From Alphaproteobacteria bacterium (lineage in GTDB: Bacteria > Pseudomonadota > Alphaproteobacteria > JASGCL01), in assembly GCA_965203915.1 (NCBI GenBank), contig OZ241918.1:268613-332612 (forward strand): 64,000 nt of DNA, given 5' to 3'. The notes under the pieces are model-generated. The model was not told the origin of the DNA. It was given only the letters and a program-made list of their open reading frames with translations, and did no database searches. This document shows positions 19,240 to 56,720 of this stretch, one piece after another (positions within the stretch are counted from its first letter, which is position 1; every line of letters starts with the position of its first letter). The translations under genes were made by a program, and so were the position numbers.

Positions 19240-19758
19240 ATGACCGATAAAAAATTACCCGCCGAAGCATCACCACCATCATCGCCCCAGTTGTCGCATG
19301 TAACCCCAAGCGGGAAGGCGGCGATGGTCGACGTATCGCAAAAACCCGAAACCGCCCGCATGGCGCGCGCCATGGCACGGGTGGTGATGAAACCCGAAAC
19401 CATTATCGCCATCAAAAATAATAATATAAAAAAGGGCGATGTTTTAACCGTTGCCAAATTGGCGGGCATCAACGGTGCCAAAAAAACATTCGACCTTATT
19501 CCATTGTGCCACCCTTTGGCTTTATCCTACATCGATGTTGATGCAATAATTGACGGCGACCAAGCGGTGGTGATTACCGCCATAACCAAAACATTTGGCC
19601 GCACGGGGGTAGAGATGGAGGCCATGACCGCGGTTAGCGTGGCCGCCCTCACCCTTTACGACATGGTAAAAGCCATCGACAAAACCGCCACCATCACCGA
19701 CATAAAATTGTTGGAAAAATCGGGCGGCAAGTCGGGGCATTCATTATATGAGCCCTAA
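19240..19758 (+). CDS. moaC: Cyclic pyranopterin monophosphate synthase MoaC.
   Basis: LSHVTPSGKAAMVDVSQKPETAR...KGDVLTVAKLAGINGAKKTFDLIPLCHPL...GVEMEAMTAVSVAALTLYDM. Confidence 0.9.
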   Translation: MTDKKLPAEASPPSSPQLSHVTPSGKAAMVDVSQKPETARMARAMARVVMKPETIIAIKNNNIKKGDVLTVAKLAGINGAKKTFDLIPLCHPLALSYIDVDAIIDGDQAVVITAITKTFGRTGVEMEAMTAVSVAALTLYDMVKAIDKTATITDIKLLEKSGGKSGHSLYEP

Positions 19759-19885
19759 CGCTGACGCTACTTGAGGGCGGGTTCTGCCCTAACGCTTCGT
19801 TGCTTCAGGGCGCATTATATTAAGCCCTATCGCTGACGCTACTTGCTAGGCGTTGCCTAGAACCAAGCTTTTACCGCTTCTGGGC
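19750..19885. repeat. Mosaic palindromic repeat element (module A, gccctaacgctgacgctacttgagggc-like, x3, plus module B, ctaggcgttgcctagaaccaagcttttaccgcttctgggctt). The moaC stop codon lies inside the element.
   Basis: Shares modules with the copies at 22655-22810, 24885-24990, 41497-41665, 45362-45400 and 56402-56720. Confidence 0.8.
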
Positions 19886-19940
19886 TTCGGGGGTAATTAT
19901 TTTATTGCTATCCTAGGACGAATCTTTTTATGGTTGGGGA

Positions 19941-20624
19941 ATGACGGGACAAAAACCACAAGCGGAAACAAAACCACAAGGGGAAGTGCAAACCAAGGCG
20001 CAAGGGGCGGGGGCGACCATCATCACCAGCTTGGATGGTTATCTTAGCTGGCTAAAGAAAATTCGTAGTGAAACCCCTTGGACAAAATCTGCATATCGTG
20101 GGGTGGGGTGGGGGGAAGACACCATAGAAAAATTTAAAAACCTGCCAAAATGTTTGTGGAATGGCAAGGGATATGAAGAAAAATATAACTTGCTACAGAT
20201 GCAAAAAGATTTGTTGGCGGAATTTCGTATGGCGGGTCATAGCAAAGACAAAAAACCTGATTTAGAATTATTGGCGGATATTCAACATGTCGAACCCCGC
20301 ACCTGCTTTATTGATTATAGCTTAAATCCCTTGGTGGCGTTGTATTTTGCCTGCCTTGATGATAAAACCAATGGCTTGGTGATAGCTAATGATATTGATG
20401 CAGAATATTTTCGTAATGTGACTATAGATGATATTGATAAAAAAATAGATGATTTTTTTATTGAGAAAGCAAAAGTAGCAGACAATATCGTGTCGCCAGA
20501 ATATCAAAGCAATAAAAAATATTCTTTAGTGAAAGCTTTGCCATGGGTTTGGCAATTACCCACCGCCGACCACCCACCACCCACGCATGATAGCGCAACA
20601 GGCGATAGTGTTGTTTGGTCATAA
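19941..20624 (+). CDS. FRG-domain protein (hypothetical).
   Basis: LADIQHVEPRTCFIDYSLNPLVALYFAC resembles the FRG-domain core (QHyGlPTrLLDwT...AlyFA). The ORF starts just after the repeat element. Confidence 0.5.
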   Translation: MTGQKPQAETKPQGEVQTKAQGAGATIITSLDGYLSWLKKIRSETPWTKSAYRGVGWGEDTIEKFKNLPKCLWNGKGYEEKYNLLQMQKDLLAEFRMAGHSKDKKPDLELLADIQHVEPRTCFIDYSLNPLVALYFACLDDKTNGLVIANDIDAEYFRNVTIDDIDKKIDDFFIEKAKVADNIVSPEYQSNKKYSLVKALPWVWQLPTADHPPPTHDSATGDSVVWS

Positions 20625-21639
20625 CATACCAGATTATGATGAATATTGTTTTATTAACCAAGATAAGAAAAAAGTAATAAGCAATCAATTGGAAGAATTA
20701 TTTGCTATCGATGGCAATAGGCTATTTCCTGATTTTGATGGTCGTGCTAAATATATTGTTGTTATCAAAGACGCCAAATATTATTTTAAACAGGCTAATA
20801 AATTTCTTGAACAAATGGCTTATGAAGAAGCCATCAAGGATTATGATAGGGCGATAGAATTGAACCCGCAATCTGCCAATATCTATAGCAATCGTGGCGT
20901 GGCAAAGAGAAACCTTGGTCATTATGAAGAAGCCATCAAGGATTATGACAAGGCGATAGAATTGAACCCGCAATCTACCGCTGTCTATGTTGTTAATCGT
21001 GGTGATGCGAAGGGCAAACTTGGTCGTCACAAAGAAGCCATCAAGGATTTTGAAGAAGCAATAAGAATAGACCCGCAATATGCCGACGCTTATATTAATC
21101 GTGGCGTGGCGAAGGGCAACCTTGGTCATCACGCAGAAGCCATCAAGGATTATGATGAGGCGATAGAATTAAACCCGCAATATGCCGAAGTCTATGTTAA
21201 TCGTGGCAATATGAAGGACGAACTTGGTAGTTATGACCAAGCCATCAAAGATTATGATAGGGCGATAGAAATAAATCCGCAATATGCCGAAGCCTATATT
21301 AATCGTGCCACTGTGAAGGGTAAACTTGGTCATTATGAAGAAGTCCTCAAAGACTTGGATAAGGCAATAGAAATAAACCCGCAAGATGCCGAAGCTCATT
21401 ATAATCGTGGCTTGGCGAAGGTTGGTCTTAAGCTATATGAAGAAGCCATCAAAGATTATGATAGGGCGATAGAATCGAACCCGCAATTTGCCATGGCCTA
21501 TAATAATCGTGGCTTGCTAAAACAGGATTTGGCGAAGCAGGAAAGGGCGAAGGGTAATGAAGAGCGGGCGCAGGAATTAGGAATATCCGCCGAAGAGGAT
21601 CTTAAAAAACATCGCGAATTGCTCAATGAGCAAAGATAA
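20587..21639 (+). CDS. Tetratricopeptide-repeat protein. About 8 TPR units are encoded by near-identical 102-bp tandem repeats.
   Basis: Repeated AIKDYDRAIELNPQYAEAYINRGVAKGNLGHYEE units; the nucleotide-level repeats are almost identical. Confidence 0.8.
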   Translation: MIAQQAIVLFGHNIPDYDEYCFINQDKKKVISNQLEELFAIDGNRLFPDFDGRAKYIVVIKDAKYYFKQANKFLEQMAYEEAIKDYDRAIELNPQSANIYSNRGVAKRNLGHYEEAIKDYDKAIELNPQSTAVYVVNRGDAKGKLGRHKEAIKDFEEAIRIDPQYADAYINRGVAKGNLGHHAEAIKDYDEAIELNPQYAEVYVNRGNMKDELGSYDQAIKDYDRAIEINPQYAEAYINRATVKGKLGHYEEVLKDLDKAIEINPQDAEAHYNRGLAKVGLKLYEEAIKDYDRAIESNPQFAMAYNNRGLLKQDLAKQERAKGNEERAQELGISAEEDLKKHRELLNEQR

Positions 21640-21659
21640 AAATGCACCGCTTGCAAAAA

Positions 21660-22165
21660 AAACAAAACCAACTTCCCTTGTGTACAAGGGAGGAAGAAAA
21701 TTAACGACACGAAGTGGAGTATAATTTTCAGGTAGGTTAGCGGGGGTTGGCGATGTAAAATATGGCAGGTGAATTTATCAAACGCGTGTTGGCTTACGGC
21801 AAAAATATGGTTGGGTTTGTTCCATTTTTTCTTTTTGCGGGCGGGGAAGGAAGCTAAGCATACTTCCCTTGTGTTACAAGGGAGGAAGAAAATTAACGAC
21901 ACGAAGTGGAGTATAATTTTCAGGTAGGTTAGCGGGGGTTGGCGATGTTAAATATGGCAGGTGAATTTATCAAACGGGGGTTGGCTTACGGCAAAAATAT
22001 GGTTGGGTTTGTTTCACCAAACGGTGTCTAACCTACCCGAAAAATATGGTCGGCTTTGCCTCCCTATTTTTCTCCCTCCCTTGTATCACAAGGGAGGCTG
22101 GCTAGCCCCTCCCTGTTTTTCTTCTTCCCTTATGTCGCAAGGGAGGCTTGACATAAATCCACTCC
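21660..22165. repeat. Non-coding repeat block: a 194-bp direct tandem duplication (about 21664-21857 and 21858-22050) plus four copies of the hairpin motif TCCCTTGTnnnACAAGGGAGG.
   Basis: cttcccttgtgtacaagggaggaagaaaattaacgacacgaagtggagtataattttcaggtaggttagcgggggttggcgatgt... occurs twice. The palindrome also recurs at about 22072 and about 22122. It lies between the convergent TPR gene and mfd. Confidence 0.85.
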
Positions 22166-22196
22166 ATCGGATCATAAATTGGCAAACCTGCTGGCT

Positions 22197-25100
22197 CTAG
22201 CAGAAAGCCTTAAGCAGGGTTTTGCTGGTGGCGACCATTTGGTCGCGGTTGCGGTTGGCGAAATGAAAAATAATTTTTTCGGTGGTGGTTTTGCCGTTTG
22301 TTTCTTTTATCATGCGTGCCTTTTTTTCTTTTAACAATGTTAACAATTTATCGGGGTTTTTGACTTGGTTGTTGTAAAACATGACGCTGGTGCTGTGGGG
22401 CGATATTTTCAATTCGGTCACCCCCGCGGCGTAACATAATTGTTTTAATTCAATCACCGCCAACAGGTTTTTTGTTTCGGGTGGTATAACGCCAAAACGG
22501 TCGGTCAATGATTCCTCGATATTTTTTAAATTTTTTTCATCCACCGATTCCGACAATTCTTTGTATAATGCCAACCGCACCATGTCGTCGGGAATATAAT
22601 CTTCGGGTATGGCAACCGCCAAGGGCAAAACAATATGCGGCGACCAATCACGCAAGATGTTTGTCCTATCGCTGACGCTACTTGAGGGCAAAATATTGGC
22701 CCTATCGCTAACGCTGCTTGCTAGGCTTCGCCTAGAACCAGACTTTACAGCTTCTAGGCTTGAGGGGACATTATCATTCGCCCCACCTTTTTCCCCTACC
22801 GCTTCGCTGCTCGAGGGCGCGCGGGTGATTTCCAAATCTTTGGCGGATAATTTGGCAATTTCTGCCATCACCATTTTTTGGTATAGTTCAATGCCGACCT
22901 CCCTCACATGGCCCGATTGTTCTTCGCCCAACAAATTGCCCGCCCCCCGCATATCCAGGTCGTGGCTGGCAAGCAAAAACCCCGCCCCCAAGTGGCTTAA
23001 ATCATCCAACAATTCTAATCTTTTTTTGGCATTTTTTGTTATGACTTTATCTTTGGGGTAAGTGATAAAACAATAACCCTGGCGGTTGCCACGCCCCACC
23101 CGCCCGCGTAATTGATACAATTGCGCCAACCCAAATTGGTCGCCGTGAAAAATAATCATGGTGTTGACATTGGGCAAATCCAAACCGCTTTCAATGATAT
23201 TGGTCGACAACAACCCATGATATTTCCCGTCGGCAAAATCGGTCATGGCTTGGTCAATATCCTCGCTCGGCATTTGGCCATGGGCCATGGTGATATTCAT
23301 ATCGGGAATAAGTTCGTGCAATGTTTTGTGAATGGTCGCCAATTGGTTAACCCGCGGTGCCACCAAAAAAATTTGCCCGCCGCGCGCCATTTCGTTGGCG
23401 ATAACCCGTTTCAAATCAAACGGGTTTAAATGCGCCACCATGGTTTTAATCGGCAACCGCCCAGGCGGCGGCGTGGCGATAAGCGACAGATCCTTGATAC
23501 CATGCAACGACAATTGCAAACTGCGCGGTATGGGGGTGGCACTCATCGATAACAAATGAACATTTTTTGCCAATTCGCGGGCGCGTTCTTTTTGTTTAAC
23601 GCCGAAGTGATGTTCCTCATCCACCACCACCAGTCCCAAATTTTTTGGCGCGATGGAACGGTGCAACAAACCATGGGTGCCGATAACAATATCAACCCCC
23701 CCCCGCGACAATTCTTCTTTGGTTTTTTTAATATCGCTGGTGGTAACAAAACGCGACATTTGTTTAATACGCACCGCAAAATTTTTAAAACGTTTCACAA
23801 AATGTTGATAATGTTGCCGCGCCAACAATGTCGTGGGAGTGATAACCAAAACCTGTTTGCCCGCCATCACCGCGCAAAAACTGGCGCGCAACGCAACCTC
23901 GGTCTTGCCAAAACCAACATCGCCGCAAATCAATCGGTCCATCGGGCGTTCCTGCGCCAAATCATTTTTGACGATATTGATGGCTTGCTCCTGGTCGCGC
24001 GTTTCGGGGTATGGAAACAATGACGCAAATTCTAAATAATCGCTGTCTTTGGGTATTAAAGATTCCGCCTTAATCGTTTGGCGCAAAGCGGCGTTGCGCG
24101 CCAACTTGGCCGCCAATTCTTTTATCCGCGCGCGGGTTTTGGCCACGCGGGCTTGCCAATCGGCCGAACCCAATTTATCCAATATATTATCCAACGGCGG
24201 CGCGGGGTCGGGCAAATCGCCGTAACGCTGTAACCTATCCAAATTTTCTATCGGCAAATATAATTTGTCGCCACCGCGATAACTTAACGACACGCAATCG
24301 TGAATTTGCCCGCCCGCGGTAATGGGTTTTAACCCCAAAAATTGTCCAATGCCATAATCCAAATGGGTAATCAAATCGCCTTTTTTTAAAGTGGTAATAT
24401 CCTTGATTAATTTTTCGATGGTCGATTTGCTGTTTTTGCCAGTAAGGGGCGGCGCCCATTGAAATTCCACCTGAAAAATATCGTGGTCGGTAATAATATC
24501 AATATTATTATTTTCGCCGCGCCAACTTTCGCCATGTTGCAATGGCAACACCGCCAGCAAAATTTTTTTTACGCCATCTTCTATTACCTCATCTATATTT
24601 TTTTTGTTTTCTGGGGTCGACCTATTGGCTTCCAAAACAATCACGGGCGGCAATGTATCATCGGTCAATAATTTTTGCCAACGGTGCAGGCTGGCGATGT
24701 TATGCGCGGCTATCAAAATACTATGCGGTGATTTTTTTATCATCGCCAACAATTTTTCTTGGAATGTTTCGTCGGGCGCGTCGGCGTTATTTTTTGCACC
24801 CAACACGGCGTTGTTCACCGCCCGTCGCGCCTGAACCACGTGGGTGGTAATAAATTCTTGCCAATTGGGCATGTTATTTTCTCCCATCGCTTCGCCGCTT
24901 GCTAGGCTTCGCCTAGAACCAGACTTTACAGCTTCTAGGCTTGGGGGCATGTTATTTCCCCCCATCGCTTCACTGCTTAAGGGTGCGGTATGGGACGAGG
25001 CAAGGCGACCAGCGGGCAGGGGAACGACGGGCATTGAGGTAGCGGATGTAAGATGGGCAGCCTCATTCATTTTTTCATGGATGCAAAAAAAATCTTTTAT

Positions 25101-26237
25101 TTTTTGTTGCCAGGATTCGACCGACAAAGAAGATTTTTCAGGCGGCAACGGCGGATAAATAAAATGGTTGGGATTTTTTTTATGTTCTTGTTTTTTAATG
25201 GCAAATTCTTCTTGTCGCTCCTCATAATCCTTTTGCTTGATGGCAAATTGTTGGCTTATTTCGGTGGCGGCGCGCCCGTGAAAAAAGAACAAAAAGTCGT
25301 CATGCAAATAATCAAAAAAATAACAACATGAATCAAAAAACAAAGGATAATAATATTGCAGATCGTTTTGGGTTAATACATTGTTAGAAAAAATTTCGCC
25401 AGGCAAAGACAAAGAAAATTCTTCGCGCATGTTGTTTAAAAATTTTTTCTGGCTTGCGGTATCAAGCGGTATTTCCGATATAGGCAAAATATTAACCACC
25501 TCTATTTTTTCCAAATTTTTTAACCGCCGTTGGTCCAGCGGCGAAAAATAATTTATCTGTTCTATTTTATCGCCAAAGAAATCTATCCGAATGGGCATGG
25601 CTTGCCCTTGGTTGGACGATAAATTCATGATGGGGAAAATATCAATAATCCCGCCGTGGCGCACCATGTCGCCGAATGTTCGAACCTCCGCCGTGGTTTC
25701 ATAACCCATTGTTATTAAATTTTTTAACAATGCTGCCATGTTGTAATCCTCACCCGTTTTTATTGACAATATTTTTTGTGCAAAAAAGGAAGGCGGCGCA
25801 ATAGGGGCCAGCAACGCAGCGTAGCAAGTGACAACCGCGAAGTTAGCGTGGTTTTGTTGTAATGCGAATAAAGTCAGGGCGCGTTCGCGGATAATATCGG
25901 GGTTGTCGTCAAACGGCAGGAAAGAAAAAATTGTTAGATGCGGGCGATGAAACAACAACCATTGTTTTTGCATCAACATTTCCTGTTGGTCGCGACAAAC
26001 AATGACCAATTTTTTTTTATTTGTTTCGTTGCTGGCCAAACGCGCCAACAACCCCGCCATGGCCAACGGTGGGGGAGATGCCCCGCCAAGCGTTTGATTA
26101 TGAGCGTCCCCAAATTCCTCCACCAACCCCGAAACCAAAGTAATGTCATGCGAATTATCTTTGCCAATTTTTTTTCTAAAATCTTGGAAATGCTGGTCGA
26201 TGATATTTTCAGCCGTGAAAAAAATATTGCGGGTCAT
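22197..26237 (-). CDS. mfd: Transcription-repair coupling factor Mfd (1346 aa), carrying two in-frame insertions of the palindromic repeat element.
   Basis: UvrB-homology N-terminus, RecG-like helicase motifs (GDVGFGKTEVALRA, DEEHHFGV, SATPIPRSL), TRG motif and a C-terminal TRCF domain. The inserts encode ...PSLEAVKSGSRRSLASGEAMG... and ...SSLEAVKSGSRRSLASSVSDR.... Confidence 0.92.
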   Translation of the reverse strand: MTRNIFFTAENIIDQHFQDFRKKIGKDNSHDITLVSGLVEEFGDAHNQTLGGASPPPLAMAGLLARLASNETNKKKLVIVCRDQQEMLMQKQWLLFHRPHLTIFSFLPFDDNPDIIRERALTLFALQQNHANFAVVTCYAALLAPIAPPSFFAQKILSIKTGEDYNMAALLKNLITMGYETTAEVRTFGDMVRHGGIIDIFPIMNLSSNQGQAMPIRIDFFGDKIEQINYFSPLDQRRLKNLEKIEVVNILPISEIPLDTASQKKFLNNMREEFSLSLPGEIFSNNVLTQNDLQYYYPLFFDSCCYFFDYLHDDFLFFFHGRAATEISQQFAIKQKDYEERQEEFAIKKQEHKKNPNHFIYPPLPPEKSSLSVESWQQKIKDFFCIHEKMNEAAHLTSATSMPVVPLPAGRLASSHTAPLSSEAMGGNNMPPSLEAVKSGSRRSLASGEAMGENNMPNWQEFITTHVVQARRAVNNAVLGAKNNADAPDETFQEKLLAMIKKSPHSILIAAHNIASLHRWQKLLTDDTLPPVIVLEANRSTPENKKNIDEVIEDGVKKILLAVLPLQHGESWRGENNNIDIITDHDIFQVEFQWAPPLTGKNSKSTIEKLIKDITTLKKGDLITHLDYGIGQFLGLKPITAGGQIHDCVSLSYRGGDKLYLPIENLDRLQRYGDLPDPAPPLDNILDKLGSADWQARVAKTRARIKELAAKLARNAALRQTIKAESLIPKDSDYLEFASLFPYPETRDQEQAINIVKNDLAQERPMDRLICGDVGFGKTEVALRASFCAVMAGKQVLVITPTTLLARQHYQHFVKRFKNFAVRIKQMSRFVTTSDIKKTKEELSRGGVDIVIGTHGLLHRSIAPKNLGLVVVDEEHHFGVKQKERARELAKNVHLLSMSATPIPRSLQLSLHGIKDLSLIATPPPGRLPIKTMVAHLNPFDLKRVIANEMARGGQIFLVAPRVNQLATIHKTLHELIPDMNITMAHGQMPSEDIDQAMTDFADGKYHGLLSTNIIESGLDLPNVNTMIIFHGDQFGLAQLYQLRGRVGRGNRQGYCFITYPKDKVITKNAKKRLELLDDLSHLGAGFLLASHDLDMRGAGNLLGEEQSGHVREVGIELYQKMVMAEIAKLSAKDLEITRAPSSSEAVGEKGGANDNVPSSLEAVKSGSRRSLASSVSDRANILPSSSVSDRTNILRDWSPHIVLPLAVAIPEDYIPDDMVRLALYKELSESVDEKNLKNIEESLTDRFGVIPPETKNLLAVIELKQLCYAAGVTELKISPHSTSVMFYNNQVKNPDKLLTLLKEKKARMIKETNGKTTTEKIIFHFANRNRDQMVATSKTLLKAFC
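22655..22810. repeat. Palindromic repeat element copy (module A x2 + module B) inserted in-frame in the mfd CDS.
   Basis: cctatcgctgacgctacttgagggc...ccctatcgctaacgctgcttgctaggcttcgcctagaaccagactttacagcttctaggcttgagggg. The plus-strand ORF 22609-23061 is the opposite-strand reading of this element. Confidence 0.85.
24885..24990. repeat. Second palindromic repeat element copy (module B + partial module A) in-frame in the mfd CDS.
   Basis: ccgcttgctaggcttcgcctagaaccagactttacagcttctaggcttggggg...atcgcttcactgcttaagggtgc. Confidence 0.85.
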
Positions 26238-26494: not shown

Positions 26495-26558
26495 GACATA
26501 ATGCCAAATGGTTTTTTATGAATAAACATGCCAGCTAGTCATTTTTTCAAAATAAAAA

Positions 26559-27000: not shown

Positions 27001-27244
27001 GGGTGATTAAGGTTAAGCTAGTCGATAGGTTTTTTTGAGTGGTAAGCCATGATAATGGCATGGGTAAATTGCCTTACGGCATATTGTCAAACCCTGTTAT
27101 TTATAATTTTTATATTATCAAAAATAGCCGCGCGAGTCAAAAGAAAAATCCCTGGCTGCGTAGGATGAAAGGTAATAAAAAAGGCACCTGTTTAAACAAC
27201 AGATGCCTACAAAAAATAAATTTTTTGTTAATGAAAAAAATGAA

Positions 27245-27421
27245 TTACATTTTCATCATTTTTTCGCATTTTTTCATCATTTTTTGGTCAGCGGCACTCA
27301 TGGATGCTTTATCCATTTTCATCATTTTGTCGCAATTTGCTTTGTTGACTTCGCCTTCGCTCGCCATAACAGCCGAGGTAAGAAGCAAGCCAGTGATCAT
27401 GGCGAAAGATAATTTTTTCAT
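27245..27421 (-). CDS. Small secreted Met/Lys-rich two-cysteine peptide, array copy 1 (58 aa: signal peptide + about 38-aa mature peptide).
   Basis: MKKLSFAMITGLLLTSAVMA|SEGEVNKANCDKMMKMDKASMSAADQKMMKKCEKMMKM; AAGGA SD 7 nt upstream; own hairpin terminator downstream. Confidence 0.65.
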   Translation of the reverse strand: MKKLSFAMITGLLLTSAVMASEGEVNKANCDKMMKMDKASMSAADQKMMKKCEKMMKM

Positions 27422-27630
27422 GATTGTTTCCTTTTCTATATATAAATTAGGATGTTGCGATAGGCGAAATTGCCAATCAATCCCCCTATAGGCTAATTTT
27501 AATTTTTTTGCAATATAATTTTGAATCGTTTGCTTGTTTTCCTATAGTATATTTTTGGTTCATAGTATTGGCGAATCTTGCGGTGGTTTGTTCGGGGCAA
27601 GGTTGGTCGGCGCGCCAAAAAATGGAGCAA

Positions 27631-27664
27631 TAAAAAAGGCATCTGTTTAGAAAAACAGATGCCT
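27631..27664 (-). terminator. Rho-independent terminator of peptide-gene copy 2 (perfect 12-bp stem aggcatctgttt/aaacagatgcct followed by a T-run on the minus strand).
   Basis: Identical copies at about 28088-28121 and 28545-28578. Variants at about 27176-27208 (copy 1), 28911-28947 and 29378-29413. Confidence 0.75.
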
Positions 27665-27701
27665 TCAAAAAATAAACTTTTTTGTTAATCAAAAAAACGA
27701 A

Positions 27702-27878
27702 TTACATTTTCATCATTTTTTCGCATTTTTTCATCATTTTTTGGTCAGCGGCACTCATGGATGCTTTATCCATTTTCATCATTTTGTCGCAATTTGCTTT
27801 GTTGACTTCGCCTTCGCTCGCCATAACAGCCGAGGTAAGAAGCAAGCCAGTGATCATGGCGAAAGATAATTTTTTCAT
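27702..27878 (-). CDS. Small secreted Met/Lys-rich two-cysteine peptide, array copy 2 (identical to copy 1; the 457-bp unit is repeated).
   Basis: Identical 457-bp unit (ORF-track duplicates 27682-27948 and 27943-28149 match copies 1 and 3). Confidence 0.65.
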   Translation of the reverse strand: MKKLSFAMITGLLLTSAVMASEGEVNKANCDKMMKMDKASMSAADQKMMKKCEKMMKM

Positions 27879-28158
27879 GATTGTTTCCTTTTCTATATAT
27901 AAATTAGGATGTTGCGATAGGCGAAATTGCCAATCAATCCCCCTATAGGCTAATTTTAATTTTTTTGCAATATAATTTTGAATCGTTTGCTTGTTTTCCT
28001 ATAGTATATTTTTGGTTCATAGTATTGGCGAATCTTGCGGTGGTTTGTTCGGGGCAAGGTTGGTCGGCGCGCCAAAAAATGGAGCAATAAAAAAGGCATC
28101 TGTTTAGAAAAACAGATGCCTTCAAAAAATAAACTTTTTTGTTAATCAAAAAAACGAA

Positions 28159-28335
28159 TTACATTTTCATCATTTTTTCGCATTTTTTCATCATTTTTTG
28201 GTCAGCGGCACTCATGGATGCTTTATCCATTTTCATCATTTTGTCGCAATTTGCTTTGTTGACTTCGCCTTCGCTCGCCATAACAGCCGAGGTAAGAAGC
28301 AAGCCAGTGATCATGGCGAAAGATAATTTTTTCAT
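28159..28335 (-). CDS. Small secreted Met/Lys-rich two-cysteine peptide, array copy 3 (identical).
   Basis: Identical 457-bp unit. Confidence 0.65.
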   Translation of the reverse strand: MKKLSFAMITGLLLTSAVMASEGEVNKANCDKMMKMDKASMSAADQKMMKKCEKMMKM

Positions 28336-28615
28336 GATTGTTTCCTTTTCTATATATAAATTAGGATGTTGCGATAGGCGAAATTGCCAATCAATCCCCC
28401 TATAGGCTAATTTTAATTTTTTTGCAATATAATTTTGAATCGTTTGCTTGTTTTCCTATAGTATATTTTTGGTTCATAGTATTGGCGAATCTTGCGGTGG
28501 TTTGTTCGGGGCAAGGTTGGTCGGCGCGCCAAAAAATGGAGCAATAAAAAAGGCATCTGTTTAGAAAAACAGATGCCTTCAAAAAATAAACTTTTTTGTT
28601 AATCAAAAAAACGAA

Positions 28616-28774
28616 TTACATTTTTTGGCATTTTGCCATTGTTTTTTGTTGCGCAGGAGTCAATGAGGCTTTGTCCATTTTCATCAACTTATCGCATTTG
28701 GCGTTCATGTTGCCAGCAGAAGCGCTAGCGGCAAGAACCAAAGCAATAGCGATCATGAGAGATATTTTTTTCAT
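28616..28774 (-). CDS. Small secreted two-cysteine peptide, diverged array copy 4 (52 aa).
   Basis: MKKISLMIAIALVLAASASA|GNMNAKCDKLMKMDKASLTPAQQKTMAKCQKM; own terminator hairpin at about 28911-28947 downstream of copy 5. Confidence 0.6.
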   Translation of the reverse strand: MKKISLMIAIALVLAASASAGNMNAKCDKLMKMDKASLTPAQQKTMAKCQKM

Positions 28775-29007
28775 GAGGTATACTCCTTAGTTTTGTTAAG
28801 ATTGTTACGACCGACGGGATTGCCAGGCGTAGGAATGATGTAAAGCAATTGTTGAGGCGTAGCAACTTGTATTATCGCTAACTTGCTACCAATTATAAAA
28901 AATGGCTAAATAAAAAAGACATCTGTTTTAATAAAAAACAGATGTCTTTAAAAATAAATTTTTTTTATTGTGCGGGCGTCAATAGTGTCTTACCCATTTG
29001 TGTCAGT

Positions 29008-29238
29008 CTATTGCATGTGATGTCGATGTCGATGTTGGTGTCGCCAGCGGCAAGAATCATGGCAACAACAATCACGGTCAATCATTTCTTCGCATTTTTC
29101 TATTGTTTTTTGTTGTGCGGGCGTTAATAAATCTTCGTCCATTTTCATTAACCTATCGCATTGGGCTTTCATGTTGTCAGCCGAAGCATTGGCGACAAGA
29201 ACCAAAGCAATAGCTGGCATGAGAGATAATTTTTTCAT
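29008..29238 (-). CDS. Small secreted two-cysteine peptide, diverged copy 5. The C-terminus reads through into a degenerate remnant of another copy (Cys/His-rich tail).
   Basis: MKKLSLMPAIALVLVANASA|DNMKAQCDRLMKMDEDLLTPAQQKTIEKCEEM followed by IDRDCCCHDSCRWRHQHRHRHHMQ; the 28960-29100 region is a decayed copy. Confidence 0.5.
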   Translation of the reverse strand: MKKLSLMPAIALVLVANASADNMKAQCDRLMKMDEDLLTPAQQKTIEKCEEMIDRDCCCHDSCRWRHQHRHRHHMQ

Positions 29239-29445
29239 GAGGTATATTTCTTATAGTTTTGCTAAGATTATGACGAATGACAAGTTTATCATTCGGATAA
29301 GTTATGCAAGTTAATTTTTGAAGCACAGCAAGTTATGCTATCACTGATTTACTAACCATTATAAAATATTGGAAAATAAAAAAGGCATCTGTTTTAAGAA
29401 AAAACAGATGCCTTCAAAAATAAACTTTTTGCTAGAAGTTAAATA

Positions 29446-35782: not shown

Positions 35783-36431
35783 TTTTTTTCTCCTTATATT
35801 GTGAAAGATAATTGCTATTTGTTATCATCGAGAAATTCGAAGTGCCATGTCTTGTAACATTTTTCTCATTTTCTATGTTGTTGCTAGCATGGTGGTTTAT
35901 GCCGCTAATATTTCTATTAGTTTTTCGGAATGACCTACAAATACTATTATAACACGGACTAAGGAAAAGTTTTAGAAAAAGCCTCCCACAACTCTCAATT
36001 TTACTATATCTTAGACTGGATAATATTTTCTTGTCAATATTATTTATTATTATCTAGGGGGGTAAATTTTTGCACATTTTAGTTGCGCAGGCTGTTTTTA
36101 GGCTGTTGCCACTGTTTATAGAAGGTTGATATATATTACAAATCAGCAATAAATAGATAAAATATAGATGATAGGTATCAAGGACAGCATCAACAATCCA
36201 TCACCAAGATAGAATGATGGATAAGATGCCTAGAAACAACATCTACCAACCCTGGATTCTGGCTTGATAGTTTGACTTTTATATGGCTAACTTTTATAGA
36301 CAGGACTGTTGATATTTTATCAGGAGTGTTTATTCTTGCCTTATTTTTTGCCCTTTTCCTCTTCATCCTCCGCTGCTGCGCCAGCCGATGCCTTATCTTC
36401 GACGGGCGTTGAGGCAAATAAAACACAAAAA

Positions 36432-41505: not shown

Positions 41506-41665
41506 GCTTCGCCTAGGTGCTGCGCACCGCAACTTTCTAGGCTGCGCCTAGAACCAAGCTTGTTATTTTGGAGTCGAGGGCGAAATGCACCCCGACACCG
41601 TGCTTGATGAAAGGCTTTTTCTCTCTCCATCGCCAAACAGTTCGGTTCTAGGGCTTGCCCTAGCT
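41497..41665. repeat. Repeat cluster at the maeB 3' end. Forward module B (ctaggcttcgcctag...ctaggctgcgcctagaaccaagcttg) and an inverted module copy (ggttctagggcttgccctag) flank a duplicated 45-bp fragment of maeB.
   Basis: 41568-41612 (ggagtcgagggcgaaatgcaccccgacaccgtgcttgatgaaa) is near-identical to maeB 41216-41260. Confidence 0.8.
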
Positions 41666-42326
41666 AGCGTGTGCCAAAAACGCCCGTGCCGATGCGCACC
41701 ATGGTGGCGCCAAGTTCGATGGCTTGGGGGTAATCGTGGGTCATGCCCATTGATGCTTGGGGCAATTGATATTTTTCTGTTAGTTGTTTTAACAAAACGA
41801 AAAAGGGGCTGGGCGGTAAGTCGAGCGGCAAAATCGCCATCAAGCCAACAATGGGTAGCGCAAGTTGGTCGCGGCAGTAATAAAAAAATTTTTCAAGGTC
41901 TTCGGGCATCACGCCGCTTTTTTGTGGTTCCTTACCCACGTTAACTTCGATAAGCAATTGGGGAAAGGGTTTGGCTTCTTGCCAATTTTCTTTTTCCTTG
42001 GCAAGGGCTTCGGCAACCGATGGTCGGTCGACACTGTGGATGACATCAAAAAACCTGACAATTTTTTTGACCTTGTTGCTTTGCATATGACCGATAAAAT
42101 GCAAAGTTATTTTTTGGCGCAAATCGGCGTCGGTAAATTTATCCATCGCTTCTTGCAATTTGTTTTCGCCAAAATGCACCAAGCCCTGTTGGTGGGCGAT
42201 GCGTACTTTATCCAACCCATGGTTTTTGCTGACCGCGATGAAGGTTATATCCTGCGCGGTGCGCCCCGACGCTGTTGCGGCCTGGGCTATGTTTTTTTTT
42301 ATCTGGGTTATGTTTTCTTCTATCAC
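41664..42326 (-). CDS. yggS: YggS-family pyridoxal-phosphate homeostasis protein.
   Basis: IAVSKNHG...HFGENKLQEA...HFIGHMQSNK...IHSVDR...IEVNVGKEPQKSG... alanine-racemase-N-like fold. Confidence 0.85.
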   Translation of the reverse strand: MIEENITQIKKNIAQAATASGRTAQDITFIAVSKNHGLDKVRIAHQQGLVHFGENKLQEAMDKFTDADLRQKITLHFIGHMQSNKVKKIVRFFDVIHSVDRPSVAEALAKEKENWQEAKPFPQLLIEVNVGKEPQKSGVMPEDLEKFFYYCRDQLALPIVGLMAILPLDLPPSPFFVLLKQLTEKYQLPQASMGMTHDYPQAIELGATMVRIGTGVFGTR

Positions 42327-44617: not shown

Positions 44618-44664
44618 TCAACATGAAGATACATCATGTTGAGGGAGCGGGAAAAAAAATAATC

Positions 44665-45366
44665 ATGACGCAAAAATTAATCATTGCCAATTGGAAAATG
44701 AATTTGCCAATCGGTGGCATAGCGGCGTTTGCAGAAAAAATAACCAAGCCGCGGCCTAGCAACCTTATCATTGCGCCGCCTTACCCTTTTTTATCGCAAG
44801 TACGTGGCCAGGGTTTTCGCATCGCCGCCCAAGATGTTTCGGCCAACGATAACAAAAATGGCAAGGGGGCATTCACGGGGGAAGTTGCCGCCGACATGTT
44901 GATGCAACTTGGCGTTCAGCATTGCATCGTGGGGCATTCGGAACGGCGGCAATATTATCATGAAGACCATGAATTGTTGGCAAAAAAAATAATTCAATTG
45001 CTTAATCACCACATCATTCCCGTTTTTTGTGTGGGCGAACAACGCGCCGATTATAAAGACAAAAAAACCAACGAAGTTTTATCGGCGCAGTTAAAAGCCC
45101 TCAACGGGTTTAAAGGAAAAGAAATTATCATTGCTTATGAACCCGTGTGGGCGATTGGCACGGGGGCGGTGGCGACCACCGACGATATGGTGCGGGTGCA
45201 TGATTATATAAAGGGGCGTTTGGGCGGCGAGGTAAAGGTTTTGTATGGCGGGTCGGTTAATGCCAGCAACGCCGCGGCAATTTTATCGTTACGCGAGGTT
45301 GATGGATTATTAATCGGCGGCGCCAGTTTAAAGGCGGATGAGATGATGAAGATATTGGCGGGATAG
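44665..45366 (+). CDS. tpiA: Triosephosphate isomerase. The stop codon TAG falls within a partial repeat module.
   Basis: IANWKMN, GHSERR, IAYEPVWAIGTG, GGASLK. Confidence 0.9.
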   Translation: MTQKLIIANWKMNLPIGGIAAFAEKITKPRPSNLIIAPPYPFLSQVRGQGFRIAAQDVSANDNKNGKGAFTGEVAADMLMQLGVQHCIVGHSERRQYYHEDHELLAKKIIQLLNHHIIPVFCVGEQRADYKDKKTNEVLSAQLKALNGFKGKEIIIAYEPVWAIGTGAVATTDDMVRVHDYIKGRLGGEVKVLYGGSVNASNAAAILSLREVDGLLIGGASLKADEMMKILAG

Positions 45367-45400
45367 AAAACCTGACTTTACCTCTTCTAGGCTTGTGCCT
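45362..45400. repeat. Partial module-B repeat (atagaaaacctgactttacctcttctaggcttg) overlapping the tpiA stop codon.
   Basis: Aligns to cctagaaccagactttacagcttctaggcttg from the mfd copies. Confidence 0.6.
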
Positions 45401-45524
45401 TTTTTATAAAAAATAGGCATGGCAATTTTAGAGATTTAAATAAAAGAATTGACAAATAACTAAGAATTGGATAGGGTTAAGAGGATATACCCATCCCTGC
45501 GGTTTAGAGCAATCTAAACGAGGG

Positions 45525-46472
45525 GTGGGGTTTTTTATATGGTGGCTGTATTTTATCATGGGACAAGGTTATAACAACTCTTCAAAACTAGATTACACCA
45601 AACCTTTTTTATCAGTTGATGGCCAGCTCGCGCTTATAAAATCAAGGGGACTTGTGGTAGGTGATGACAATGAAGCAAAACATTATCTTAAAACTATAGG
45701 TTATTATCGTTTAAGCGGTTATTGGTATCCTTTCCGTAAAGAAGCTAGCGAATATTTTATAAATGGCACAAAATTTTCTGATATTGTTGAATTGTATGCT
45801 TTTGATAAAAAATTAAGGCTGATTGTTTTAGATGCGATTGAAAGAATAGAGGTTGCTGTTAGGGTAGCTATGGTTTTGTCTTTAGGCAAAGATAATCCTT
45901 TTATACATTTAAGTAGTAATATATTTTTTAATGAAAATAATTACAAAGAATGGAAAGAACATTTTGATAAAAAATATAAATCTTCTAAGCAACCATGGTT
46001 TATGACCGCAAATAAAAAATATAAAGAATTGCCAATTTGGATGGTGATAGAAACATGGGATTTTGGGTTGTTATCTTATTTCTTTTCGGGTTTAAATTCT
46101 AAATATAAAGATATTATAAGTGGCAATTATGGTGTGGATCCTACTGTATTAAAAAATTGGTTAGCAAGTATCAATGAGATAAGAAACATATGCGCTCATC
46201 ATCAACGATTATGGAATTTTTCATTAAACAACGTAGTAAAAACACCAAAAAACTTACCTGATATGGATAATATTAGAACCAATCAAGCGGCAAGAGTCAA
46301 AATATACGCTACATTAATCATCATACAATTTTTATTAAAAAAAATTAATCCCACCACAAAATGGCATCAAAGATTAAAAGAACATATGAATCAATTTCCT
46401 AATAATCCTAACATTCATATTCAGCAAGCTGGCTTTCCTCAAGCTTGGCATAAAGAAAAAATTTGGCAATAA
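45525..46472 (+). CDS. Abortive-infection phage-resistance protein, AbiD/AbiF family (Abi_2).
   Basis: YRLSGYWYPFR and IRNICAHHQRLWN hallmark motifs. The gene is markedly AT-rich with Asn/Lys/Ile-rich codon usage, unlike its flanking genes. Confidence 0.8.
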   Translation: MGFFIWWLYFIMGQGYNNSSKLDYTKPFLSVDGQLALIKSRGLVVGDDNEAKHYLKTIGYYRLSGYWYPFRKEASEYFINGTKFSDIVELYAFDKKLRLIVLDAIERIEVAVRVAMVLSLGKDNPFIHLSSNIFFNENNYKEWKEHFDKKYKSSKQPWFMTANKKYKELPIWMVIETWDFGLLSYFFSGLNSKYKDIISGNYGVDPTVLKNWLASINEIRNICAHHQRLWNFSLNNVVKTPKNLPDMDNIRTNQAARVKIYATLIIIQFLLKKINPTTKWHQRLKEHMNQFPNNPNIHIQQAGFPQAWHKEKIWQ

Positions 46473-50616: not shown

Positions 50617-50700
50617 GCGGGCGTGGCGAAATGGCAGACGCGCCAGATTTAGGTTCTGGTGAGGTAACTCGTGGGGGTTCAAGTCCCTCCGCCCGCACCA
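50617..50700 (+). tRNA. tRNA-Leu (anticodon TAG), class II with long variable arm.
   Basis: GCGGGCGTGGCGAAATGGCAGACGCGCCAGATTTAGGTTCTGGTGAGGTAACTCGTGGGGGTTCAAGTCCCTCCGCCCGCACCA: anticodon loop TTTAGGT, long variable arm, GTTCAAGTC T-loop, encoded CCA. Confidence 0.85.
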
Positions 50701-50797
50701 AGCATAAATCAAGAAACAAGAAATAAAACAGTAACAATGAATTACTTCAAGTTTTTTACAACATTTCATTTTTATAACATCTTAAGGAAAAAACATC

Positions 50798-52171: not shown

Positions 52172-52206
52172 TAAAACGCGCTAAGAAAGATACAACGATT
52201 GGCAAC

Positions 52207-52830: not shown

Positions 52831-52848
52831 TTTCAAGAAAAAAAAATC

Positions 52849-54752
52849 ATGTTGCACGCCGTTCGCGCCCTTGCCCGCAATCGCCCCTTTCAAATTGTGT
52901 TGGGCATATTGTTGGGCGTTGGTTTTATTTCCTTTGGTGCCAGCAATTTTTCGCCAGGCGGCAAACCATTGGTTAAGATGGCGGGCCAGGATATATCGGC
53001 AAGGCAATTCCAAGTTTATTACCAAAACAAATTGGCTGAAAACAATTTACAAAATCTTAGCCCCGCCGACCAAAAAAATTTGCAACTGCCCCAAAAATTT
53101 TTGCAAAGCCTAGTCTTGGAAACATTATTATTAAAAATGGCGCAAGATATGAATTTGCAAATCGCCGATTCGGTGGTGGCGCGCGCTATCAAGGATAACC
53201 CAATATTCAAAGACCCAACAACAGGGCAATTTTCAAAAGATCGTTATTTGGCGACCATCAAACAAAATGGTATCAGCGAAGGAGTCATTATCGAGCAGGT
53301 GAAAAAAAACCTAACCTTGGCTTGGTTAAAAAATTATTTTGCGGGCTTATCGTTCGATGTTCCCGCCCTACAACCCATGTGGCAGGGCGACAAGGCCCAA
53401 GTGCTGTTGGATTATCTAACCCTTGATGTTGCTCATGTCGGGGGTAAGGTTGCCGCGCCGAGCGAGGACGACCTTAAAAAATATTATGGCGCGCATGTGG
53501 CGCAATATCAATTGCCCAATTATCGGCGATTCCAGGTGCTGACCTTATCGGGCGATATGTTGAAAACCATGGCGAGCAAAAAAGCCAGCGTCAGCGACAA
53601 AGAAATAAAGGAAGCCTACGAAGCGCGCCGCGATGAATTTCAAACCCAGCCAGGGTATCAATTTGAACAATTGTTATTTGCCGACAAAAAATCGGCCGAT
53701 GATTTTTATGCCCGCCAAGCTAGCGCATCAACCGCCGCGTGGGACAAACAAAAACCAGCGGGGGCAAAATATAACCTTATCAATTTAAACCAAAGCGATT
53801 TGGCGGCCTATGGTTTTGAAGCCAACGATGCGGTGGGCAAGCAATCAAATGTGGTGGAAACGCCGTTTGGTTTTGCCATGGTGCGGTTGGTAAAAAAAAT
53901 GGGTGGCGGGGTCAGGCCATTGGCCGATGTTGCCCCAACCCTGCGCGCGCAATTGTTGGGGCAAAAAACCAACCAAATTTTTAACGATACCTATCGCGCG
54001 GTCAGCGACCAATTGGCAAGCGGCAAAAATTTTAACACCGTGCTAAAAGAAAATAATTTGAATGGCGCGATTGTGACCACCAATTTTATGGATAATCAGG
54101 GGCGTGATAAAAATGGCCAAAAAATAAAAGGCCAATTATATTTGGATAAAATGTTGGAGCAAGGTTTTGCCGAAAATATTAAACATAGCCCCCTATTGTT
54201 GACCGACAATAACAATGGACAGTCCAATATTGTCGCGATTGGCATGATAGCCGACGAAGCCACGGTGTTGCCGCCATTTGATAAGATAAAAAACAAAGTA
54301 GCCCAAGATTGGCGACAAGGCGAAGAAGAAAAAATATTGTCGGCGGAAAAACAAAAGATAGACGAACAAATTACCAATGGTAAATTCGATTTTGCAGCCT
54401 ATCAAGCAAGCAAGCAATTGCCCGTCGCCCGCAGCATATTTTTACAAAAACAAATTCTGGCCGAACAGCCATATTTAAACAAATTGATAACAGCAACCTG
54501 TTGCAGGTTTTATTTACCCCCGCCGTGACGGTGTTGACCAACGAAGCAGGCGAGAAAAAATTGTTGGTGATAAAACACAGTGCGCCACCCAGCAAGCAAA
54601 CCAAATTATCAGCCAAGGTATCAGTCAAGGACGCCGCCGATTTTACCAAACAATTTCAAACCGCGATGGGTGAAGGTTGGTTGCTAGACCTTTATCGGAC
54701 CAATCGCGTCGATATCAATTGGTCGCAGTTGGATGTTATCTTTAGCCAATAA
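52849..54752 (+). pseudogene. ppiD: PpiD-like membrane-anchored periplasmic chaperone (SurA-N / peptidylprolyl isomerase family) interrupted by a single-base frameshift near 54480-54500 (ORFs 52849-54528 and 54501-54752).
   Basis: N-terminal TM anchor plus SurA-N-like region. The frame-1 tail ...LITATCCRFYLPPP* is nonsensical, while the overlapping frame continues ...QIDNSNLLQVLFTPAVTVLTNEAGEKK... to 54752. Conserved position between clpP and trpE. Confidence 0.6.
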
Positions 54753-54847
54753 TGTTTTACAGGCAATTTTTTATAGGAAATTTTTTTATAGGGGATGAAG
54801 CATAAAAAATGGCATGACTTGCCCCAGTTTTTTGCTATAAAAAAATA

Positions 54848-56401
54848 ATGTTACATACCATTACCAATCAAGAAGAATTTTTGAACCATTACAACAATGG
54901 GCAAGATGCCTTGTTGTGTTGTCAATTATCTATCGACACCATCACCCCCGTGGCGGCGGTGATGAAATTGCAACATGCTTCGCGCCATTTGTTTTTGCTG
55001 GAATCGGTTGAACAGGGCAAAACCCGCGCCCGTTATTCTTTTTTGGGATGGCAACCGATATTGTTGTGGGAAGCCCGCGGCGGCGAAGTGTTTCATCGCG
55101 ATGGTGACGAAGCCCCATGGCAAAAAATGGCAAGCAAAGAAAAAACCAACCCGCTGGATGACCTGCATGATATTCTCAATCGTCATGCTATCCATTTTCC
55201 TGCGGGGTTGCCCGCGGCGGCCTCGGGGTTTTTTGGTTTTTTAAGTTACGACGCGGTGCAGATGATTGAAAAAATCCCACCGCATCGCGAAGACCCACAT
55301 CATTTGCCCGATGGTCGGTATTTTTTGCCCAAGCAAATATTGATATTTGATAATGCCACGGACAAGGCTTCCTTGGTCGTGCGTTGCCAATATAAAAAAG
55401 ACACCACGGCGCAGGATGCTTTGCTTGCCACCCAAAAAACCATCAATGACACGCTGGAAACCTTGCGCCAATCATTGCCCGCCAACACGGCGCGCGCCCA
55501 CGCGGCGGTTGCCGCTCCGCAACAACCCAAACACCTAACGCCTGAGGGCGACTACCTAACCGCCGTGAAAAAAACCATCGACTATATCAAGGCGGGGGAT
55601 ATTTTCCAAGCAGTCATCAGCCAAGTTTTTGAATATGATAACCCGCATGGTTCGCCCCTTAATTTTTATCGCGCCTTACGCGCCACCAACCCCGCGCCCT
55701 ACATGTTTTTCTTTCAATGGGAAGATTTTGCCTTCGCGGGGGCCAGCCCCGAAACCCTGGTCAAGGTTGAAGATAAAAAAATGTCAGTCTACCCCATTGC
55801 GGGCACGCGCCGCCGTGGCACCACCGAGGATGAAGATAAAAAATTGGCAGAAGAATTGTTGGCCGACCCGAAAGAACGCGCCGAACATTTGATGTTGCTC
55901 GACCTGGGGCGGAATGATGTCGGCAGGGTAGCCGAAATAGGAACGGTCAAGGTTGTTCAAGAATTTCAAGTCGAGCGTTATGCGTTTGTTATGCATTTGG
56001 TGTCGGAAGTCATGGGGCAATTGGCAAAAGATAAAAGCAGTTTGCAAGCATTATGCGCGGGCATGCCCGCGGGCACCGTGTCGGGCGCGCCAAAAATTCG
56101 CGCCATGGAAATTATTGCCGAATTGGAAAAAACCCGCCGCGGATTATACGCGGGGGCGGTGGGATATTTTTCCAGCAAATTAAACAGCGACAAAACAAAA
56201 GAAGATTTTGTCAACCAAGCCGACATGGACCATTGCATTGCCTTGCGCTGCGCCTTGCTCAAAGCCGACAAAGTCACCATTCAAACGGGGGCGGGTATTG
56301 TTTACGATTCGGTGCCCGAAAAAGAACAGGAAGAATGTTTGAACAAAGCGCGTGCATTATTCAAAGCCTTCGACCGTGCTCACGAATTCTCAGGCAATTA
56401 A
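54848..56401 (+). CDS. trpE: Anthranilate synthase component I.
   Basis: LLESVEQGKTRARYSFLG, chorismate-binding core GAVGYFS..., ...IQTGAGIVYDSVPEKEQEECLNKA. Confidence 0.92.
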   Translation: MLHTITNQEEFLNHYNNGQDALLCCQLSIDTITPVAAVMKLQHASRHLFLLESVEQGKTRARYSFLGWQPILLWEARGGEVFHRDGDEAPWQKMASKEKTNPLDDLHDILNRHAIHFPAGLPAAASGFFGFLSYDAVQMIEKIPPHREDPHHLPDGRYFLPKQILIFDNATDKASLVVRCQYKKDTTAQDALLATQKTINDTLETLRQSLPANTARAHAAVAAPQQPKHLTPEGDYLTAVKKTIDYIKAGDIFQAVISQVFEYDNPHGSPLNFYRALRATNPAPYMFFFQWEDFAFAGASPETLVKVEDKKMSVYPIAGTRRRGTTEDEDKKLAEELLADPKERAEHLMLLDLGRNDVGRVAEIGTVKVVQEFQVERYAFVMHLVSEVMGQLAKDKSSLQALCAGMPAGTVSGAPKIRAMEIIAELEKTRRGLYAGAVGYFSSKLNSDKTKEDFVNQADMDHCIALRCALLKADKVTIQTGAGIVYDSVPEKEQEECLNKARALFKAFDRAHEFSGN

Positions 56402-56720
56402 TTCGCCCTACCGCTGACGCTACTTGAGGGCAACTAGGGCAAGCCCTAGAACCAGGCTTGTTGCCACCAGTGGTAAAAAAGTATATTTTAACTTATTAAG
56501 AATTTTTTTGGTAATTCATTTGCCCATTTTTATTGCGCTATCACTTCGTTGCTTGAGGGCGATAGGTTTCGCCCTAGAAACGAGATTTTCAGCTTTGAGA
56601 ATAAAGCCCTGAAGAAATTGTAAGTTGCGGTGCGCAGCACCCAGGATTTTCCGCTTTGAGAATAAAGCCCTGAAGAAATTGTAAGTTGCGGTGCGCAGCA
56701 CCTAGGCAAAGCCTAGTTGC
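56402..56720. repeat. Repeat cluster immediately after the trpE stop. Module A + ctagggcaagccctagaacc (56405-56462); a second composite copy (56536-56720) containing a 61-bp tandem duplication (56584-56644 / 56645-56705) and the ctaggcaaagcctag palindrome followed by a T-run.
   Basis: gttgcggtgcgcagcacc is the reverse complement of ggtgctgcgcaccgcaac in the maeB-end copy. ctagggcaagccctagaacc is the reverse complement of 41643-41662. Confidence 0.8.

Follow-up and report, generated by a model that had tools for sequence, protein, structure and literature searches.

Mosaic hairpin repeats at gene ends and inside mfd in a small alphaproteobacterial genome

How does a short repeat come to lie exactly at the 3' ends of genes, and does it decide where the encoded proteins end? 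The question is raised by a 64,000-nt stretch of a small (1.63 Mb) alphaproteobacterial genome (GenBank assembly GCA_965203915.1, contig OZ241918.1, positions 268,613 to 332,612; hereafter the window), in which a first-pass annotation had placed copies of one repeat family at the ends of moaC, maeB, tpiA and trpE and had proposed that the copies supply the stop codons of the first three. The copies belong to one mosaic family of hairpin repeats, short and non-coding, which are composed of four modules, A to D, abut or overlap the stop codons of five genes, encode the last residues of MoaC and MaeB, and are also translated in frame within mfd. Our preferred explanation, to which we give a probability of roughly 70%, is that these repeats resemble the repetitive extragenic palindromes (REPs) and Rickettsia palindromic elements (RPEs) of other bacteria, are tolerated directly after stop codons and in a linker of Mfd, and end open reading frames (ORFs) incidentally.

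Anatomy of the repeats and their position at gene ends

Module A opens with an A+T-rich leader, about 10-13 nt long, and continues with a stem of 5-7 bp (GCCCT/AGGGC) around a conserved loop of 16-17 nt, the hairpin itself measuring 26-27 nt. Module B is a perfect palindrome, CTAGG(G)C-N2-3-G(C)CCTAG, and modules C and D are GGTGCTGCGCACCGCAAC and AACCAGACTTTACAGCTTCTAGGCTTG, respectively. Units of module A are arranged head-to-tail with a period of 34-38 nt in the window, in a close relative and in other genomes. All module A copies in the window lie on the + strand, and modules B-D occur in both orientations; the GC skew across the window is weakly positive, too small for a link between replication and the single orientation of module A. 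The family is far more frequent than chance would allow: the loop pattern CGCTGACGCTACTTG, with at most three mismatches, has 7 matches against 0.57 expected, and CTAGGC-N2-6-GCCTAG has 6 against 0.00. Altogether the 64 kb hold about ten loop cores and eight module B palindromes. The tetranucleotide CTAG occurs at only 57 sites in the window, a large share of them within the repeat palindromes.

The genes concerned were identified by NCBIfam and Pfam as moaC, maeB, tpiA and trpE, all on the + strand, and their proteins reach the end of the family profile. The stop positions given earlier for the first three, and the codon strings quoted with them, proved exact. The moaC gene (172 residues, 19240-19758) ends in a TAA at 19756-19758, which lies at the junction between the 5' arm and the loop of the first module A hairpin (19752-19778; GCCCTAACGCTGACGCTACTTGAGGGC, that is, GCCCT-AACGCTGACGCTACTTG-AGGGC), and a back-up TGA follows two codons past the TAA within the same hairpin. 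A covariance model of the hairpin, described below, matches this unit at 19742-19780 (E=1.9e-7) and the second hairpin (19786-19811) at 19782-19813 (E=0.0067). These are followed at 19824-19900 by a third module A loop fused to the module B palindrome CTAGGCGTTGCCTAG (19846-19860) and then a D-like segment. In maeB (805 residues, 39088-41505) the TAG stop at 41503-41505 makes up the second to fourth bases of CTAGGCTTCGCCTAG, a perfect palindrome at 41502-41516, which opens an array on the + strand reaching 41565 and made up of CTAGGCTTCGCCTAG, module C, a second palindrome CTAGGCTGCGCCTAG and a D-like segment; its B+C unit recurs inverted at 56685-56716.

The array after maeB faces a fifth gene end, which the first-pass annotation had not mentioned. 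Here the minus-strand stop (41664-41666) of a yggS-like gene (220 residues, 41664-42326; its orthologues carry PF01168), which reads ...CGC TAG at its end, is separated by a gap of 0 nt from the module B palindrome CTAGGGCAAGCCCTAG (41648-41663, minus strand). The TAG of tpiA (247 residues, 44623-45366) does stand at a repeat junction, at 45364-45366, but the adjoining piece, which had been called a partial module B, is the segment that comes after module B and lies outside the palindrome. Immediately after the TAG comes AAAACCTGACTTTACCTCTTCTAGGCTTG, with 89% identity to the copies at 22736 and 24917, and the 24-nt module D fragment AAAACCTGACTTTACCTCTTCTAG (45367-45390, + strand) has TAG on both sides. 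Next to it, at 45389-45405, is an AGGC-TTGT-GCCT hairpin with a T run that has the look of a weak terminator.

After trpE (517 residues, 54848-56401) the first hairpin begins at 56405, 3 nt past the stop, as had been reported. This module A hairpin (56405-56431; model match 56395-56433, E=7e-8) is followed by a module B copy, CTAGGGCAAGCCCTAG (56434-56449), and, further along the + strand, by a degenerate module A loop with the hairpin GAGGGCGATAGGTTTCGCCCT (56525-56577; model match E=2e-4) and by two direct repeats of about 60 nt (56596-56716). The latter read GATTTTC(A/C)GCTTTGAGAATAAAGCCCTGAAGAAATTGTAAGTTGCGGTGCGCAGCACC and carry module C in the orientation opposite to that of the copy after maeB. 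They end in the palindrome CTAGGCAAAGCCTAG (56702-56716) and a T run, which together look like a terminator; the equivalent in the close relative is CTAGGACTGCGTCCTAG with a T run.

All intergenic copies in the window are confined to four spacers, which follow ORFs and separate convergent or co-directional genes, and each array begins on a stop codon or no more than 3 nt from one. Among intergenic positions outside the elements, only about 1.8% lie 0-3 nt after a stop.

The repeats had also been thought to carry stops in all frames. Six-frame translation of the arrays contradicts this, because in each orientation one frame stays open throughout and the other two close quickly. The stops lie in the hairpin arms, as TAA or TAG (CCTAA, CTAGG) and TGA (GCTGACG, CTTGAGG), and occupy two of the three frames. 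Module A read in its + orientation contains TGA, contains TAA in its A variant only and contains no TAG, and one of its frames is fully open. Both mfd here and moaC of the close relative are translated through the elements.

Protein ends and linkers encoded by the repeats

The close relative was reached via members of 90% identity protein clusters and is represented by a contig of 525,336 bp (loci L131, L132 and L133), of which about 58 kb were covered beside the 64 kb here. Its YggS and TpiA are 99% and 90% identical to those of the source genome, and its MoaC belongs to the same 90% identity cluster as the source MoaC. More distant syntenic relatives were L121 and L124, which come from one metagenome-assembled genome, and L122, L125 and L126. 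The MaeB of the L121/L124 genome is 85% identical to the source MaeB; no element was found in the 19 kb of syntenic sequence that these two loci provide in total, and they show native tails and short spacers.

Orthologues of MoaC carry 3-8 variable residues after an invariant GGKSG. The source protein ends ...GHSLYEP* at the TAA in hairpin 1. In the close relative (L132) the same hairpin array follows GGKSGHS, but the leader has one extra base (CATTCATGTATAT against CATTCATTATAT) and hairpin 1 is entered in the open frame, so that translation continues through it (ALSLTLLEG...) and ends ...GHSCILALSLTLLEGRLCPNASLP* at a TAG in hairpin 2. The two proteins, of 172 and 192 residues, therefore differ because a 1-nt indel changes the frame of entry into the same array. 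Where relatives lack the element, the moaC product ends ...HFIGVMAD* or ...VFKLPTT* and the gene leads directly into the convergent mfd. Judged from these alignments, the tail of MoaC is encoded by the element. The same can be said of MaeB, which ends ...EAANR* here at the first TAG of the palindrome and ...EAASKGKA* in the close relative at the second TAG of a diverged copy (CCAACCGCTAGGCTTCG against CCAAGGGCAAGGCTTAG). Since element-free relatives have longer native tails, ...DATTRLEKTK* or ...QCNWSAKS*, with about five more native residues, some five native maeB codons have been replaced. The earlier proposal that the present C-termini are defined by the element thus stands for these two proteins; it fails for TpiA, whose end is unchanged relative to the close relative.

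At tpiA the close relative reads GGC TAG GCTTGTGCCTTTTTT and the 24-nt piece is absent, whereas the source genome reads GGA TAG AAAACCTGACTTTACCTCTTC TAG GCTTGTGCC. Because the relative has GGC-TAG-GCTTGTGCC without the piece, the TAG stands at its native position, and the ends of the two proteins (...ILAG* against ...ILGG*) are unaffected by the 24-nt difference. The end of TrpE, EFSGN*, is common to four element-independent relatives at 71-73% identity, and the stop of trpE is therefore native; the idea that the A+T-rich leader always derives from the element, in which case the element would supply the trpE stop too, is ruled out by the same four relatives. YggS has 220 residues and the same end in all three genomes compared, and the palindrome abuts its native TAG both here and in L131. 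From these comparisons TpiA, TrpE and YggS keep native C-termini which the element merely abuts. The arrays themselves change quickly between close relatives: after trpE, one tandem hairpin is present here and five to six are present in the close relative. The first-pass annotation had also suggested that the element might insert preferentially into terminator-like hairpins; small hairpins are indeed present in the matching convergent spacers of the element-free relatives.

Two composite arrays that had been overlooked lie in frame and without stops inside mfd (1346 residues, 22197-26237, minus strand). Site a (22662-22820, + strand) has the composition A-A-B-D-A and is translated from the minus strand as ...APSSSEAVGEKGGANDNVPSSLEAVKSGSRRSLASSVSDRANILPSSSVSDRT...; site b (24868-24990, + strand) is translated as ...APLSSEAMGGNNMPPSLEAVKSGSRRSLASGEAMGENNMP.... 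Alignment to E. coli Mfd reveals extra residues in the source protein at both sites and alignable sequence on both sides of each. Site a is occupied here, in L132 and in L122, where four tandem units encode PSSSEAIGQSIS, and it is an ordinary linker of 24 residues in L121. At site b, 78 nt (24881-24958, 26 codons) are extra relative to L132, and its B-D core is identical to that of site a, from which we conclude that the sequence points to a recent copying event. A translated array is also seen in the close relative at L008:5431-6555 (L008 being probably part of the same contig as L131-L133), where 3-4 hairpin units in a predicted secreted protein are translated as (L/S)PSS(S/N)(A/V)AIGQ(N/T).

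The spacers that bear arrays are also sites where the close relatives differ in accessory genes. After moaC, genes for FRG and TPR proteins (19941-21639) are found here and methylase and GmrSD/HNH genes in the relative (L132:10696-13438); a methyltransferase after trpE (L133:5032-6273) and an A+T-rich insert of about 690 nt after maeB (L131:12422-13080) occur in the relative only, and an Abi_2 gene follows tpiA in both genomes (45525-46472 in the window). The arrays may mark hot spots of recombination or integration. Lineage-specific extra segments are seen in several proteins: MoaC has an N-terminal insert of 12 residues, LPAEASPPSSPQ (19255-19290), MaeB an N-terminal extension of about 40 residues (39088-39210), and BamA has 901 residues (36309-39014) compared with 794-839 in relatives. 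In both genomes the sequence immediately upstream of trpE contains short tandem units of the form AATTTTTTACAGG (54750-54800; L133:2880-2945), which may belong to a leader or regulatory region. Elsewhere in the window, tandem repeats at 27174-29430 have a period of 457 bp; 3.2 copies are 99% identical and diverged copies come after them. Each contains a hairpin, AAAAAAGGCATCTGTTT...AAACAGATGCCTT, and its ORFs are without a Pfam match.

Why the repeats lie at gene ends

We suggest that the repeats would persist where they do little harm, which is directly after stop codons and in the flexible linker of Mfd. Where an array extends into the unconserved codons at the very end of a gene, translation ends at the first in-frame stop that the element offers, and in the third frame the array is read through; the repeats end ORFs incidentally because two of their three frames hold stops. 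Indels, changes in unit number and new insertions alter the arrays rapidly, and because of this turnover close relatives have MoaC and MaeB proteins with unlike tails. Two sites, that at tpiA (24 nt, with TAG on either side) and site b of mfd (78 nt), are each filled in one genome and empty in the other, which is consistent with such a history. On this explanation the repeats are probably selfish or neutral rather than selected, and it would be purifying selection that leaves them at stops, perhaps together with a junction preference for TAG/CTAG or for GGC followed by A+T-rich sequence. A means of spreading, a function of the hairpins as RNA and an effect on mRNA ends are likewise putative.

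Several points weigh against this explanation. No mobilising enzyme was identified, the ORFs of the window having been only partly scanned, and the repeats were followed over 64 kb of one genome and about 58 kb of another. Selection alone would not obviously place every array as close as 0-3 nt to a stop. The difference at tpiA could be a deletion in the relative instead of an insertion here. Furthermore, because the z-scores for RNA folding are weak (-0.9 to -2.4), a structural RNA role is not demonstrated.

The close fit to stop codons might instead reflect the mechanism of insertion rather than selection, if modules B and D inserted specifically at stop-like TAG/CTAG targets and module A at (A/G)GGC followed by A+T-rich sequence. 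We regard this as possible though tentative. The junctions themselves speak for it: at tpiA the empty site GGC-TAG-GCTTG corresponds to the filled site GGA-TAG-[21 nt]-TAG-GCTTG, the native TAG of yggS is immediately followed by CTAGGGC, the maeB junction reads CGC-TAG-GC, and the D core is flanked TAG...TAG in its canonical copies. The left junctions of module A are GGGGC at moaC, AGGC at trpE and GGGC at mfd site b, each followed by A+T-rich sequence. These are only a handful of junctions, however, and since the palindromes themselves start and end in CTAG, target duplications are indistinguishable from element ends. The mfd sites lie away from stop codons, and in the wider hairpin family described below a rough tally finds that, among the matches listed, only 18 of the 105 hairpins have a well-supported ORF stop within them, just past them or no more than 3 nt away.

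Somewhat less probable still is that the arrays are selected elements of the 3' untranslated region, serving as terminators, as stabilisers of 3' mRNA ends or as ribosome-stalling hairpins near the stop. This would account for the fact that the intergenic arrays all follow genes on the sense strand, and a precedent exists in E. coli, where REPs that lie no further than 15 nt from a stop codon are reported to stall ribosomes (Liang, Rudd and Deutscher, summarised in PMC12306157). In the trpE spacer the final palindrome is followed by a T run, and the close relative keeps this palindrome with compensatory changes in the stem (CTAGGAC...GTCCTAG); the tpiA hairpin and its T run are also common to the close relative. 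Most copies, however, are without a T run. In a scan for intrinsic terminators, only 56702-56716 passes and the tpiA hairpin is marginal, and the number of terminator-like sites (35 against 30.2 expected) represents no enrichment. The weak folding scores given above also argue against a selected role, as do the great differences between the arrays of close relatives, the absence of arrays from the next relatives and the translation of the same units inside mfd.

Finally, it is very unlikely that the position at stops is a by-product of a compact genome with spacers of 20-40 nt, overlap with stops arising by chance: spacers in element-free relatives are indeed very short (24 nt between maeB and yggS; moaC and mfd overlapping or 44 nt apart), but a gap of 0-3 nt or an overlap is found at 5 of 5 first-in-array junctions here and at 4 of 4 in the close relative, few intergenic positions come as near to a stop, and the trpE and tpiA spacers would measure about 55-120 nt if their elements were taken out, and even there the arrays begin at the stop.

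A wider hairpin family and known repeat systems

A scan of genome contigs with a pattern for the module A hairpin returned at least 120 loci, and the counts that follow refer to the matches listed. Hairpins of this kind (L001-L120, L127-L130) occur in many Alphaproteobacteria, among them Erythrobacteraceae, Rhodobacterales, Caulobacterales and Rhizomicrobium, and in a few Actinomycetota. They share a leader rich in T, a GNCCT/AGGNC stem that covaries and a nearly invariant 16-nt loop, AYCGCTTCGCTRCTTG, are often arranged in tandem with a period of 34-38 nt, and often adjoin a stop or start codon or fall within genes; by a rough tally, about a third of all pattern matches in these loci of high GC content (34) fall within genes encoded on the other strand. 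Of the 138 pattern matches, 105 continue with AGG, which the pattern does not demand, and the variable outer pair is Watson-Crick in 101 of these 105 hairpins (GC 40, CG 32, TA 25, AT 4). When the hairpins of 69 genomes are aligned, 98.8% of the stem cells pair, with GC, UA and CG common at the variable position, and none of 500 shuffles reaches the covariation score of the alignment. A scan of metagenomes found only four contigs, all of high GC content and from other lineages.

The covariance model was built from these 69 other genomes, none of which belongs to the source lineage. It matches the window at E=1.3e-8, 7e-8, 1.9e-7, 1.1e-6, 2e-4 and 7e-3, all on the + strand, and has no match in the element-free relatives. 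This shows module A to be homologous to a hairpin family that is widespread in Alphaproteobacteria. Rfam holds no match for the hairpin, even at E up to 1, and a search of open-access text for DNA and peptide strings of the repeat found nothing relevant. It is conceivable, although we would not favour it, that module A is this lineage's version of an undescribed family of Alphaproteobacteria and some Actinomycetota which has its own way of spreading, comes to rest at the borders of genes and in the linkers of proteins, and repeatedly rewrites C-termini and linker peptides there. With its covarying stem and invariant loop and no Rfam entry, the wider family may merit a census and a search for the agent that spreads it.

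Other palindromic repeats of bacteria are already known to end genes and to encode their last codons. The present case adds an example, at the sequence level, of small, probably selfish repeats rewriting the ends of housekeeping proteins, and it implies for annotation that C-terminal tails and length differences in this lineage are derived from repeats and are not to be taken for functional divergence. The closest parallels are REPs and the bacterial interspersed mosaic elements (BIMEs) which they form. In most cases fewer than 20 bp separate a REP from the ORF upstream of it, REPs with GTAG termini often supply the TAG stop of flanking ORFs, and REPs are also found inside replication and repair genes, the RPEs of Rickettsia being one instance (Di Nocera et al. 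2013, PMC3733652). The present family is likewise a short (20-40 nt), multi-copy, imperfect palindrome located just after ORFs, with termini that supply stops, copies in a repair gene and mosaic clusters of several modules.

The differences lie in structure. Tagged REPs are defined by an unpaired GTAG or CGTC tag, a stem of 8-9 bp and a loop of 4-5 nt (PMC3733652), whereas the family described here has neither tag, a stem of 5-7 bp and a loop of 16-17 nt. REPs and BIMEs mostly form inverted dimers, head-to-head or tail-to-tail, and the present arrays are head-to-tail with their period of 34-38 nt. An identity with CGTC- or GTAG-type REPs is ruled out by this structure and by the encoded peptides, PSSSEAVG being absent from the list of intragenic REPs in PMC3733652. 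No Pfam family of the Y1 transposases associated with REPs (REP-associated tyrosine transposases, RAYTs) was found among the genes in about 50 kb of Pfam-labelled sequence from the relative, the ORFs of the window having been scanned in part.

The RPEs of Rickettsia (Ogata et al., as cited in PMC3733652) are alphaproteobacterial palindromes that lie in frame within intact genes and are translated, as the arrays in mfd are here, and the peptide segments they add are extra and tolerated at the protein surface. RPE-1, however, is a single unit of about 100-150 bp, compared with arrays of units of about 36 nt, and the host here is not shown to be Rickettsia. The peptides of RPE-4 and RPE-6, SFLRKQES and WIPWSNHGMT (PMC3733652), differ from PSSSEAVG. 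With the stop-proximal REPs of E. coli the family shares a hairpin no more than 15 nt from the termination codon of the upstream gene; there the effect on translation was measured, whereas here the arrangement is known from sequence alone and the hairpin overlaps the stop in two genes.

Miniature inverted-repeat transposable elements (MITEs) such as Correia/NEMIS, ERIC and RUP are also small, non-autonomous, gene-adjacent repeats that fold in mRNA, and a short target duplication may be present at the tpiA junction, as in MITEs, the 24-nt piece being flanked by TAG, or possibly CTAG, relative to the empty site in this single case. Unlike MITEs, the present repeats have no terminal inverted repeats of 15-30 bp, and their units are much shorter (hairpins of 15-27 nt) and stand in tandem arrays. 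A CRISPR array is ruled out by spacers of only 8-13 nt. Its lack of a tag, its short stem, its large and conserved loop, its direct arrays and its peptides, which are outside the list in PMC3733652, set the family apart from REPs in the strict sense; we class it as a new family within a kind of repeat that is already known.

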